From: Rhodanobacteraceae bacterium
GTDB taxonomy: Bacteria; Pseudomonadota; Gammaproteobacteria; Xanthomonadales; SZUA-5
Assembly: GCA_016713135.1 (NCBI GenBank)
Contig: JADJPR010000023.1
Span: forward strand, 668,427-732,426
DNA length: 64,000 bases
Direction: 5' to 3'
In this document: piece after piece, positions 2,682 to 6,368 of the stretch
Numbering within the stretch: the first letter of the stretch is position 1
How the letters are laid out: every line of letters begins with the position of its first letter
The notes under the pieces: generated by a model
Seen by the model: the letters and a program-made list of their open reading frames with translations, nothing else
What the model was told of the DNA's origin: nothing
The model's database searches: none
Translations under genes and position numbers: made by a program

Positions 2682-3085
2682 TTGCGATCGTCTCCCATCC
2701 GGATGCCGGCAAGACCACGCTGACGGAGAAGCTGCTGCTGTTCGGCGGGGCGATCCAGATGGCGGGGTCGGTGAAGTCGCGCAAGGCGGCGCGGCATGCC
2801 ACCTCTGACTGGATGGCGCTGGAGAAGGAGCGCGGGATCTCGGTGACGTCCTCGGTGATGCAGTTCCTACGCCGGGCGGATCGTCAACCTGCTGGACACG
2901 CCGGGCCACGCGGACTTCTCGGAGGACACCTAGCGCGTGCTGACTTCGGTGGACTCGGCGCTGATGGTGATCGACTGCGCCAAGGGCGTGGAGGAGCGCA
3001 CGATCAAGCTGATGGACGTGCGCCGGCTGCGCGACACGCCGGTCATGAGCTTCATCAACAAGCTGGACCGCGAGGGCCGCTCGCC
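2682..3085 (+). pseudogene. prfC: decayed duplicate of the 5' third of prfC (about codons 14-150 of RF3)
   Basis: Near-identical by eye to 4806-5212 of the intact gene. Translates [63 protein letters not shown] 2-nt deletion (about 2868-2880) then shifts the frame, and TAC->TAG occurs at 2931-2933. Similarity stops after ...[11 protein letters not shown]. Confidence 0.85.
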
Positions 3086-3191
3086 ATTCGCAGCGTCGTG
3101 CGCGCAGGCGTTGCATGGGATGATCGTGCCGGCGGCTTTGGCAGTGGCACAAGCGCCCGGCGTCGCATGGAGGTGGCTTTGTAACCGAAGC

Positions 3192-3461
3192 TCAAGGCCC
3201 CGCGTGCCCGGCGGGCTGGACCTCATCGCCGGTACGCGGAGGCTGTCCGCCCTCGCGCGCCATGATCGCGTCGAACCTGGCCAGATCTGCGCGGCTCTGT
3301 CGCTCCAGGAAAAACTGCTCGGCGGTCATGAAAGCCAGCTTTTCAGCCACGGCGGTCGCGACAAACTGGTTGGCGCTGGTGCCGTCCTGCTTGCTGACCC
3401 TTTCGACCGCGGCCTTGATCGAGCGTGGAAGACGCAAGGGAAAAGTTGAACTCGTTTTCAT
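3192..3461 (-). CDS. ribbon-helix-helix / HicB-like type II antitoxin (89 aa)
   Basis: ORF-track protein [45 protein letters not shown]... has the strand-helix-helix pattern of RHH antitoxins. It overlaps the upstream PIN gene by 4 nt (3458-3461). Confidence 0.6.
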
Positions 3462-3909
3462 CGCAATCTCGTCAACGCCTCCGACGGTAGCAACAGTTCG
3501 ATTCCAAACCTGGCCGGGGCTTTCGCGAAATCGCGCTGATTGAACGTGATCAACGCGTCTGCGCTGCCGTTGACTGCCGCCTCCAGGACCATTTCGTCGG
3601 CCGGATCACGCAGCTGCGGGCGCCACGAGTAGTGGATCGCAACCGGTCGCACGATCACAGCCAGTGCATCGAGGAAGGCCTGTGCATCCTCCCGAGGCTC
3701 GCCGCCAAAAGGCGTTCGTCCTCGCTGCACTTCGCTTCGTACTCGAGAAACAATGGGACACTGACCAGGAGAATCAGGCGTCCATGCCGGGCCATGCGCA
3801 ACAGTTCTGCCGAAGCGCCGGCCGGGCTTCGCAGGCACGCGATGAGGCCCACAAACGCAGAGTCAGAACAACACGAGCCCGAACTTCTCGAACGGCGCGA
3901 AATCCCCAC
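3458..3909 (-). pseudogene. PIN-domain toxin (TIGR00305-like), apparently frameshifted
   Basis: The N-terminal half (...DSAFVGLIACLRSPAGASAELLRMARHGRLILLVSVPLFLEYEAKCSEDERLLAASLG) is in the 3655-3909 frame. The C-terminal half (EDAQAFLDALAVIVRPVAIHYSWRPQLRDPADEMVLEAAVNGSADALITFNQRDF) is in the 3458-3838 frame. The halves join if one G is restored in the G-run near 3693-3697. The start codon is uncertain, and this may be a sequencing error. Confidence 0.5.
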
Positions 3910-4240
3910 GGTTGAGCGTCACGAATTCGGCGCCGACGTTGATCGCGCAGGCGGCGATCAGGGCGTCGGTTCGGGTTCTGCGGTTGCGGCCGGTTGCGTT
4001 GTACATCCTTCCGGCAAGATCGGCGGCGGCTTCTGTGACCGGCTCGATTCGGCCAGCAAGGACGGCACGGGCTAGCTCCTTGTGTTCGTCGCTGACCGGG
4101 CCGCAGACGAATTCGTACCAGACCAGCGCGCAAGCGGCGGCTGGCTGGCCCTGCTGAATGCGTTTGATCGCCGGATGATCCTCGCGCACCCAGACTGGCA
4201 AAGCAATCAGGCCGTTGGTATCGAACTGGATCCGGCTCAC
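3863..4240 (-). CDS. vapC: VapC-family PIN-domain toxin (125 aa)
   Basis: [14 protein letters not shown]...TDALIAACAINVGAEFVTLNRGDFAPF carries the acidic residues and layout of a PIN domain. It has an ATGA start/stop overlap with the upstream antitoxin at 4237-4240. Confidence 0.8.
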   Translation of the reverse strand: MSRIQFDTNGLIALPVWVREDHPAIKRIQQGQPAAACALVWYEFVCGPVSDEHKELARAVLAGRIEPVTEAAADLAGRMYNATGRNRRTRTDALIAACAINVGAEFVTLNRGDFAPFEKFGLVLF

Positions 4241-4500
4241 GAGCGGCGCTCATCGGCTTCGAGGCGTGCCGCGCGCGCCTCCGTGGTGAGAATCCGAAGT
4301 TGACCCGCGTCCATCGGCACTGCGCCCGCCCGAAAACAATCGAGGGCCTGCTGAGGCGTCAGGCGAACCGCGGCCCGCTCCACCGCGGCGCGCACCGCGC
4401 GCCGGACAACTCCGGCTTGGGACGTGCCCCACAGTTCCGCCAGTCGACGCAGGGCTTCGATGGTGTCGCTGTCGAGGCTGAAAGTCGTGCGATGGGCCAT
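4237..4500 (-). CDS. vapB: VapB-like RHH/CopG antitoxin (87 aa)
   Basis: An internal ATG (complement of 4498-4500) of ORF 4237-4608 gives [40 protein letters not shown]..., a typical RHH N-terminus. It is translationally coupled to vapC. Confidence 0.65.
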
Positions 4501-4766
4501 GGCCGCAATCCGATGTGATGGCATATTGCGATGGTATGCGCTCAGATCCTGGGCGAGCAACCCGAGAAAGACGAAAATGGTCGATTCAGGAGCGCCTGAC
4601 TCGACCAAGACAGTCTGTTCGGCGCCCGTTGACCCTTCGACGGGCTCAGGGGATTAGCAGCGGAGCGACCTCCGCTACAGGAATGCGACAAGGACCATCA
4701 TGGACTGGTCGCGACGTGCGTGTCGCTCCTACAATGCGCGCCCTTTTTGTATCTCCTGCCGAGTCC

Positions 4767-6368
4767 ATGTCCGAACACCTGCGCGAAACCCGGCGCCGCC
4801 GCACCTTCGCGATCATTTCGCATCCGGACGCCGGCAAGACCACGCTGACGGAGAAGCTGCTGCTGTTCGGCGGGGCGATCCAGATGGCGGGGTCGGTGAA
4901 GTCGCGCAAGGCGGCGCGGCACGCGACGTCCGACTGGATGGCGCTGGAGAAGGAGCGCGGGATCTCGGTGACGTCCTCGGTGATGCAGTTCCCGTACGCG
5001 GGGCGAATCGTCAACCTGCTGGACACGCCGGGCCACGCGGACTTCTCGGAGGACACCTACCGCGTGCTGACGGCGGTGGACTCGGCGCTGATGGTGATCG
5101 ACTGCGCCAAGGGCGTGGAGGAGCGCACGATCAAGCTGATGGACGTGTGCCGACTGCGCGACACGCCGATCATGACCTTCATCAACAAGCTGGACCGGGA
5201 AGGCCGCTCGCCGATCGACCTGCTGGACGAGATCGAGAGCGTGCTCGGCATCCAGTGCGCGCCGGTGACCTGGCCGATCGGCATGGGCTCGCGCCTCAAG
5301 GGCGTGTACCACCTGCTGTTGGACGAGGTGCATATATATGAGTCGGGGCGCAATTTCACGCGCCAGGACTCGACCATCTTCAAGGGCCTCGATGCGCCGG
5401 GCCTGGAAGAACGCCTGGGCAGCGATGTGCTGCGCGAATTGCGCGATGAACTGGAACTGGTGCAGGGCGCCTCGCACCCCTTCGACCGCGAGGCCTACCT
5501 GTCCGGCAAGCAGGCGCCGGTGTTCTTCGGTTCGGGCATCAACAATTTCGGCGTGCAGTTGCTGCTGGATTTCTTCGTGGAGCACGCGCCGCCGCCGCGC
5601 CCGCGCGCCACCGAGACCCGCACGGTAGATCCGCTGGAGGAGAAGTTCAGCGGCTTCGTGTTCAAGATCCAGGCGAACATGGATCCGCAGCACCGTGACC
5701 GCGTGGCTTTCCTCCGCGTCTGCTCGGGGCGCTACGAGTCCGGCATGAAGGCCTGGCATGTGCGCGCCGGCAAGGAGTTCAAGCTGGCAAATGCGCTGAC
5801 CTTCATGGCCAGCGACCGCGAGATCGCGCAGAGCGCGTATCCGGGCGACATCCTGGGCATCCACAACCACGGCACGATCTCGATCGGCGACACCTTCACC
5901 GAGGGCGAGGTGCTGAAGTACACCGGCATCCCGAACTTCGCGCCGGAACTGTTCCGCCGCGCGCGCCTGCGCGATCCGCTCAAGCTCAAGCAGTTGCAGA
6001 AGGGCCTGACGCAGTTGTCCGAGGAAGGCGCGACGCAGTTCTTCAAGCCGCTGCTGGGCCACGACTTGATCCTGGGCGCGGTGGGCACGCTGCAGTTCGA
6101 CGTGGTCGCCTACCGGCTCAAGGACGAGTACGGCGTGGAAGCGGTGTTCGAGAACGTGCAGATCCATACGGCGCGCTGGATCGGCGGCGACGACGCGAAA
6201 TCGCTGGAGGACCTGGAGTCCAAGGCGATGCAGAACATGGCGAAGGATGCCTCCGGCGCGCTGGTGTACCTGGCGCCGACCCGCGTGAACCTGCAGCTGA
6301 CCGAAGAGCGCTATCCGAAGCTCCGGTTTGCCGCGACCAAGGAGCATGCGCAGCCGGTGGAGATGTAG
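4767..6368 (+). CDS. prfC: peptide chain release factor 3 (533 aa)
   Basis: [26 protein letters not shown] (G1), DTPGH, NKLD, and full-length RF3-like sequence. I chose the ATG at 4767 inside ORF 4515-6368 because it matches the canonical RF3 N-terminal length. Confidence 0.95.

Follow-up and report, generated by a model that had tools for sequence, protein, structure and literature searches.

In prfC, which encodes RF3, the 5′ end is a proven hot spot of site-specific integration, as seen both in Escherichia coli records and for SXT/R391-type ICEs (integrative and conjugative elements), which insert there (PMC4344509). Toxin-antitoxin (TA) modules are typical ICE cargo (PMC2654960). Here we describe a prfC locus of a Rhodanobacteraceae bacterium (order Xanthomonadales; assembly GCA_016713135.1, contig JADJPR010000023.1, positions 668,427 to 732,426; these 64,000 nucleotides are referred to as the window), in which a broken fragment of prfC (the stub, or copy A) lies upstream of a complete prfC (whose corresponding segment is copy B), with TA genes in between. 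We give an even chance to the reading that the stub is not an attachment (att) site and is instead the scar of an insertion-duplication, that is, of recombination with the DNA of a closely related bacterium.

How site-specific integration into prfC looks in complete genomes is seen in E. coli. Of the 5427 matching records from 5,426 complete genomes, 710 (~13%) lacked a contiguous match to the prfC 5′ query, and five of the six lowest-ranked rows listed were split at prfC nt 59. The one case examined is strain JNEC-KY174, and the reference core is derived from its prophage. There, a Stx2b prophage of ~46 kb sits in prfC with a tyrosine integrase beside attL. The attL/attR core is 14 nt long (ATTATTTCTCACCC, codons I-I-S-H-P), the orphan stub at attL keeps the native promoter and the first 22 codons, and the phage supplies a 21-residue replacement N-terminus in which KRRTF is kept.

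A second set of described systems that resemble the locus comprises Campbell-type integration and homology-facilitated illegitimate recombination (HFIR), or insertion-duplication (de Vries and Wackernagel 2002; Prudhomme et al. 2002; as cited in PMC5361080). HFIR-type displacement that leaves orphan fragments beside retained selfish or immunity genes has been proposed for type VI secretion system (T6SS) and Rhs loci (PMC5361080).

In the window, the repeat finder detects the two prfC copies as direct repeats on the same strand, offset by 2125–2127 nt and 94–95% identical (94.6% over 407 nt by BLAST). The initial annotation, made from the sequence of the window alone, had described a broken prfC copy of ~0.4 kb that lies upstream of the intact gene at a distance of 2.1 kb and shares its orientation. 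This description stands, as do the two lesions: 2 nt are deleted after 2867 (CC--TAC), and TAC has become TAG at 2931–2933. Besides the TAG stop, copy A carries six further amino-acid changes, and all seven are derived in A. Judged against about 90 prfC loci (loci of relatives and metagenome contigs are given L numbers below), homology of copy A begins at ~2681, at codon 14 (the F of FAI), and ends at 3073–3085, near codon 150; the repeat shared by the two copies runs on to 3090/5217, slightly past the boundary of about 3085/5212 estimated before. Copy A is an internal fragment, without a promoter, codons 1–13 and everything past codon 150. The flanked unit amounts to 1.7 kb between one truncated and one complete prfC copy. 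Long direct repeats of an anchor gene flanking acquired DNA are what an insertion-duplication scar would leave, and we infer that the junction at 3090/3091 is an illegitimate joint.

Two independent metagenome assemblies join A-specific variants to the cassette: contig L081 (Logan SRR26425195) matches 3056–4847 at 100%, and contig L087 (JGI 3300055001) matches 3043–4598 at 99.9%. As the two assemblies reproduce the junction, a chimeric assembly is ruled out on the right side; this independent confirmation covers the right junction of copy A, not the left one at 2680/2681. With its frameshift and its stop codon, copy A is also no piece of a working gene from another strain. The organism is present in samples SRR26425195, SRR26425196, SRR8831205, SRR35571890, SRR35571891, SRR14932552 and JGI 3300055001. 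The segment is present in at least two strains about 1% apart, one of them represented by the variant contig L085.

The 5′ end of the complete gene is of the native type. The promoter-like motif GCTCCTACAAT at 4725–4735 is common to loci L088 and L113, both without the duplication, and the 65 nt preceding the ATG (4702–4766) align with L088. Local alignment of the copy B leader scores 76 with L088 and 61 with L113, against a shuffle null of 18 ± 2.5. The N-terminus of the intact PrfC is that of the clade, as compared with L004 and L113 (MSELLRETERRRTF), and the whole protein is 100% identical to P0131 (MBK8070318.1), from a Rhodanobacteraceae metagenome-assembled genome (MAG). A sliding comparison of copy B with relatives revealed no discontinuity at codon 150. 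As judged by these comparisons, the working prfC keeps a native promoter motif, leader and first 13 codons shared with uninterrupted relatives, which contradicts the initial proposal that the cassette had brought a replacement promoter and 5′ coding segment.

The DNA in front of the stub is of another kind. The 183 nt upstream of it score at the shuffle mean against five native prfC leaders, in agreement with the earlier observation that the two copies are unrelated upstream of the shared segment. A TGCGCGCC-TTT match between this DNA and native leaders was at chance level and was discarded. The sole sigma-70-like match in 2498–2680 is on the minus strand (2586–2557), where it resembles a promoter of the minus-strand gene. 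Ahead of FAI, 96 of 97 prfC genes have the tripeptide RR(T/S) and the other one has RKT; the left junction of the stub reads VRFG-F, with RFG where RR(T/S) is near-invariant. The left flank of the stub as a working alternative N-terminus was rejected on the absence of this tripeptide, and the junction is therefore not that of a working replacement 5′ end.

The two copies differ from each other as alleles of separate lineages would. In a neighbour-joining tree of the 412-nt segment (the phylogeny that the initial annotation had proposed as a check), copies A and B are sisters with 99% bootstrap support; third-position differences number 16 between A and B, 28 between A and L097 and 29 between B and L097. 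The 22 substitutions that separate the copies comprise 15 synonymous and 7 nonsynonymous ones, the stop codon included, and the Nei-Gojobori estimates of synonymous (dS) and nonsynonymous (dN) divergence are dS = 0.161 and dN = 0.023, with a dN/dS of 0.145. The null is a local duplication in which one copy decays at once, with dN/dS of ~0.5 and an expected nonsynonymous share of 0.595, from which the observed 7/22 departs (binomial p = 0.008). The repeats differ like two alleles under purifying selection in different lineages; the ratio of 0.145 against 0.5 implies that the stub spent ~70% of its separate history inside a working prfC. At the sites that vary between A and B, L113 sides with A four times and with B five times. 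On the simplest reading, A and B would be alleles of two closely related lineages joined by gene transfer. The excess of synonymous changes makes a simple tandem duplication unlikely, so that the earlier suggestion of foreign DNA holds up.

Table 1. Features of the prfC locus and the DNA to its left, in window coordinates.
Feature	Position	Strand	Evidence and remarks
Large secreted protein gene, 5′ part, 832 codons	2-2497	-	Pfam GEVED, P_proprotein; six-frame translation; signal peptide
Intergenic DNA left of the stub	2498-2680		Not a prfC leader; no similarity above shuffle level
prfC pseudogene fragment (copy A), codons 14-150 only	2681-3090	+	prfC alignments; comparison of copies A and B
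Spacer, ~100 nt	3091-3191		3090/3091 is the right breakpoint of the stub
RHH / YlcI-HicB-like antitoxin open reading frame (ORF), intact, 89 aa, second TA module	3192-3461	-	Weak Pfam PSK_trans_fac; weak NCBIfam YlcI_YnfO_N
PIN_3-family toxin pseudogene	3458-3909	-	Pfam PIN_3 split across two frames; three-frame translation
vapC, intact PIN-domain toxin gene, 125 aa	3863-4240	-	Pfam PIN, E = 2e-7; weak VapC matches in NCBIfam
vapB, RHH_1 antitoxin gene, 87 aa	4237-4500	-	Pfam RHH_1; 4-nt overlap with vapC
vapB-prfC divergent intergenic region, 266 nt	4501-4766		Palindrome and promoter-like motif, then leader
Intact prfC (RF3, 533 aa)	4767-6368	+	Pfam GTP_EFTU, EF-G_D2, RF3_C; holds copy B, 4806-5217

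Between the copies lie two TA modules, as annotated at the outset; they are not back-to-back but stand in tandem on the minus strand, and the PIN_3 toxin gene of one of them is a frameshifted pseudogene. In the intact module, the RHH_1 antitoxin gene lies directly upstream of the PIN toxin gene and overlaps it, which is the VapBC gene order; the pair is also called in contigs L081–L087, and vapC homologues with 61–90% identity occur in varied contexts. The module can be compared with VapBC modules that stabilise DNA segments, for example mosAT of SXT (PMC2654960). As in those, the antitoxin gene overlaps the toxin gene by 4 nt, and the pair sits between direct repeats and would be lost if these recombined; the window differs in that its pair is a predicted one and its second module has a dead toxin gene.

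In the second module, PIN_3 profile positions 12–50 fall in one frame and 59–115 in another, which places the frameshift at ~3694–3727; it is also present in metagenome contigs that are 100% identical. The 5′ end of the pseudogene overlaps the 3′ end of vapC. The variant contig L085 (99% identical) apparently has 4 extra nt (CGTC, plus strand) at 3694/3695, as seen in 13 nt at the contig end, and such an insert would tentatively restore the PIN_3 frame and yield an intact toxin gene. The region of the RHH ORF has weak nucleotide similarity (66–68% over ~290 nt) to PIN/HicB-antitoxin pairs on Methylosinus and Methylorubrum plasmids, and a plasmid search with the cassette returned only matches of 66–74%, to modules of the PIN/HicB type carried by plasmids of Alphaproteobacteria. 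At 4578–4607, vapB and the prfC promoter are separated by an imperfect palindrome of 30 nt (87%), which could act as an operator for VapB or as a terminator.

To the left of the stub, the secreted protein gene, given in the initial annotation as 1–2497, starts at 2497 on the minus strand and is divergent from the stub; it runs off the window at its other end. The lower GC content assigned to it is borne out, with 56–64% in the left gene (1–2600) versus 68–73% in the transporter genes right of prfC (7200–12000). The best homologues are ~1400 aa long and only 31–42% identical, with the domains GEVED, P_proprotein and Peptidase_C25, and a scan of metagenome contigs with the protein yielded only 28–31% relatives. 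The gene is collinear with the C25 protease gene upstream of prfC in L097, with only 27% identity. It appears to be hypervariable or recently replaced, given that PrfC itself has relatives at 95% identity; identity to homologues of at most 42% together with the lower GC content is consistent with allele replacement.

Two kinds of architecture are found upstream of prfC in relatives. In Xanthomonadales bacterium PRO6 (L097–099; PrfC 95% identical), a 1445-aa C25 protease gene is divergent from prfC across a 190-nt spacer, and in L088/089 a C25 gene is followed by a fimbrial cluster and then by prfC; these relatives, the closest by PrfC, have no TA genes upstream. A vapBC pair divergent upstream of prfC is found in L111 (PrfC 88% identical, VapC 68% identical, with a response-regulator gene after vapC) and in L113 (VapC 77% identical, with a further PIN-type TA module between prfC and vapB, at 558–1297). 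In the sequence available, neither L111 nor L113 contains a prfC fragment; the TA genes are thus not tied to the duplication. In the comparison of prfC loci suggested by the initial annotation, TA genes without the fragment were found, and a relative with the same flanks was not. The window looks like a hybrid of the ‘C25-type gene / prfC’ and the ‘vapBC / prfC’ architectures, in which the stub occupies the place where the C25-type architecture would put prfC. Close to the vapBC homologue of L114, genes for PhdYeFM, DUF433 and AbiEii are present (7250–9016); to judge from such neighbourhoods, vapBC modules of related loci tend to sit in small defence or addiction islets.

We suggest the following course of events. 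The resident chromosome would have had the arrangement ‘C25-type gene / prfC’, as in PRO6, and the incoming DNA, from a close lineage with a ‘TA islet - vapBC / prfC’ arrangement (compare L111 and L113), would have carried the genes for RHH and PIN_3 as well as vapCB, together with the native promoter and the 5′ part of prfC. The highly conserved 5′ GTPase-coding part of prfC would have served as homologous anchor and site of crossover, and the other incoming end, now at 3091, would have been joined illegitimately at 3090/3091, by HFIR or by Campbell-type single-crossover integration of a circularised fragment. In the product, the 5′ part of the resident prfC (copy A) would lie upstream; the donor TA genes would come next, and after them a promoter and first codons of the native type, leading into a complete hybrid prfC (copy B). 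Copy A, now redundant, would have decayed by the frameshift, the stop codon and the six amino-acid replacements. A later event on the left would have cut away its promoter and codons 1–13 (at 2680/2681), probably when a divergent allele took the place of the protease gene, or else by deletion. The intact vapBC may help to retain the segment of 2.1 kb: if RecA-mediated recombination between the 410-nt repeats deleted it, vapBC would be lost along with the promoter and start of prfC, which may explain the persistence of the segment. The region between the hypervariable C25-type gene and prfC is, on this comparative picture, a putative recombination hot spot in the Rhodanobacteraceae/Lysobacterales clade.

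The resemblance to Campbell-type integration and HFIR lies in the long repeat of an anchor gene that brackets acquired DNA, with one homologous and one illegitimate end, and in repeats that differ as donor and recipient alleles would. The locus departs from these systems in that the process is deduced from a natural genome and that a second breakpoint trimmed the stub.

Several points weigh against the insertion-duplication reading. The model needs two separate events for the two ends of copy A, and the dN/dS comparison rests on 22 substitutions only. Relatives that share the flanks were not found, whether carrying the insert or lacking it: the closest relatives (PrfC 88–95% identical) share no flanking DNA, and L097 shares only the family-level C25 gene/prfC arrangement, so that donor and recipient blocks are not directly assignable. 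Homologues of vapBC also occur in unrelated contexts (L112, L114/L115), the vapB-prfC intergenic DNA is not conserved with L111, and the adjacency of vapBC and prfC in L111 and L113 could reflect repeated targeting instead of shared ancestry. Only 6 nt separate the left breakpoint of the stub from the equivalent of the 14-nt core of the E. coli prophage (2687–2700), on this model a coincidence with a chance of ~4%, and an integrase-mediated or aberrant excision event could have made this break; the evidence on integrases covers the 64-kb window.

A possible but improbable alternative is that the stub arrived as a passenger in an already mosaic foreign block (C25-like gene, 183-nt spacer, prfC codons 14–150, 100-nt spacer, RHH gene and truncated PIN_3 gene), which was inserted illegitimately beside a native vapBC-prfC, with its right junction at ~3863–3909. 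Synteny of L111 and L113 with the window does stop right after vapC, in L111 as well as L112 the block of vapBC homology has its end at 3867, the PIN_3 5′ end overlaps vapC, and the low GC content of the left gene and the descent of copy A from a diverged lineage would fit a foreign block. Such a donor must, however, already have carried a doubly truncated prfC fragment, which requires more junctions than insertion-duplication does, and the proposal leaves unexplained that the fragment comes from prfC itself and lies next to that gene in the same orientation; moreover, adjacency of a C25-type gene and prfC is native in the closest relative.

Somewhat less credible still, and clearly unlikely, is the decayed footprint of a site-specific element targeting prfC (an SXT/R391-like ICE, a prophage or a mobilisable island), the geometry for which the initial annotation had argued. 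Either the 2.1-kb cassette would be a remnant that supplied promoter and 5′ codons, or the element would lie left of the stub and have integrated at the canonical core, with 2680/2681 as an attR-type junction. The geometry itself stands, with the truncated copy first, the cargo behind it, next the promoter and first codons, and finally the complete gene; the window and the SXT/R391 ICEs and Stx prophages have in common the gene, the end of the gene, and a complete gene downstream of inserted DNA with addiction-type cargo. To this and the proximity of the left breakpoint to the core equivalent can be added that 5 of the 22 A/B differences fall in the first 24 nt of copy A, that an in-frame GTG with a Shine-Dalgarno-like GAAAGG precedes the stub, and that the GC content of the left gene and the TA modules would suit an ICE. 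The other features point elsewhere. The known elements have a tyrosine integrase and a core of 14–17 nt; between the copies, Pfam finds only the RHH, PIN_3, PIN and RHH_1 ORFs and no integrase, as had been noted initially, and the 25 Pfam families that are listed for 29 large ORFs elsewhere in the 64-kb window include none. The repeat is 410 nt long and spans codons 14–150, instead of 14–17 nt at the I-I-S-H-P codons. The orphan stubs of the known elements keep the native promoter and the first 20–22 codons, as an attL stub must, whereas the window stub starts at codon 14 behind DNA unrelated to any prfC leader. Where an element-encoded N-terminus would keep RRTF, the working gene in the window has a native 5′ end, with promoter motif, leader and N-terminus common to the uninterrupted L088, L113 and L004, and the stub junction is VRFGF, not RR(T/S)F. 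In position, and at the level of the family, the left gene corresponds to the C25 gene that lies beside prfC on the PRO6 chromosome. In a PrfC scan (identity of at most 83%), neither a partial prfC duplicate (80 representative genomes) nor TA genes were present in relatives among the matches listed, and a scan of viral contigs with the N-terminus of PrfC returned a single contig, whose prfC is simply host DNA that follows groESL. As for short direct or inverted repeats at element ends, a 16-nt inverted repeat (2624–2639 / 3100–3115) flanks the stub and is no better than dozens elsewhere in this GC-rich DNA. A prfC-targeting SXT/R391-like element is not supported.

We consider it very unlikely that the stub goes back to a duplication, tandem or segmental, of the 5′ region of prfC within this genome alone, with decay of one copy and no foreign DNA. 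That A and B are each other’s closest sequences, in the same orientation and near one another, would follow naturally from such an origin. The dN/dS value and its departure from the null speak against it, copy A shares synonymous states with L113 and L097 where B differs, and a local event would also have doubled the promoter and first 13 codons, or the cassette, neither of which is duplicated. Equally speculative is the idea that the 2.1-kb unit is an integrase-free, homology-guided addiction cassette, consisting of the TA islet, the prfC promoter and ~450 nt of 5′ coding sequence as integration arm. Such a cassette would rebuild a working prfC on arrival and leave the displaced host 5′ part as a stub, and its TA genes would punish RecA-mediated loss. 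If this were true, the prfC 5′ end would be the target of a second, recombination-based class of islets beside the integrase-based ICEs and prophages. Finally, an assembly artefact, that is, a chimeric join, in what appears to be a MAG, of reads from two co-occurring strains, is hardly credible: copies 5% apart do match a strain- or species-level difference and only the right junction is independently confirmed, but copy A is broken by a frameshift and a stop, the two independent assemblies reproduce the right junction and the connection to the start of B at 100% and 99.9%, and six Logan contigs end at 4813–4849, where the copies become identical.

Metagenome assemblies of the clade break within prfC codons 40–73 (partial PrfC proteins P0128, P0130, P0132 and P0137, of 494, 494, 463 and 461 aa, respectively), and L113 ends at codon 69. 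These breaks likely stem from a segment that is nearly identical between co-occurring strains; intragenomic repeats like those of the window could conceivably also be their cause. Downstream of prfC, a tandem array of 6.9 copies of a 123-nt unit (6362–7210; 94% matches) begins 4 nt ahead of the stop codon and fills the gap to the next gene. Its units carry short palindromes, e.g. GTCCGGACAAGGTCCGGAC, and a 23-nt core has 7 occurrences in the 64 kb, all of them within the array (0 expected by chance). Otherwise the window consists of ordinary chromosomal DNA, with genes for signalling and ribonucleotide reductase as well as kdp, kup and PPK2, and in an Rfam scan of the 64-kb window no tRNA or other family reached the gathering score.

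The insertion-duplication reading also places the locus beside the orphan arrays of Rhs, contact-dependent inhibition (CDI) and T6SS loci (PMC5361080). In both, incoming modules anchored on a conserved segment displace older DNA, and the older DNA is kept together with a fragment of the conserved gene, presumably since it is costly to lose the selfish or immunity gene linked to it. The arrays are located 3′ of a conserved core, are found in many strains and carry immunity genes, whereas the window holds a single event at the 5′ end of a housekeeping gene for a translation factor and carries TA genes.

Read in this way, the locus adds a further case to a known kind of recombination scar; as such it is ordinary biology that carries little weight for the discovery of mechanisms. 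On its own, a gene fragment at a known att hot spot such as the 5′ end of prfC does not speak for a site-specific element, and counts of synonymous and nonsynonymous changes can tell a foreign allele from a local duplication. The locus provides a natural example of how a very conserved housekeeping segment may anchor the uptake of accessory DNA and leave a partial gene duplicate behind; should such stubs recur at TA islets, they would link this process to the displacement model of the Rhs and T6SS orphan arrays.

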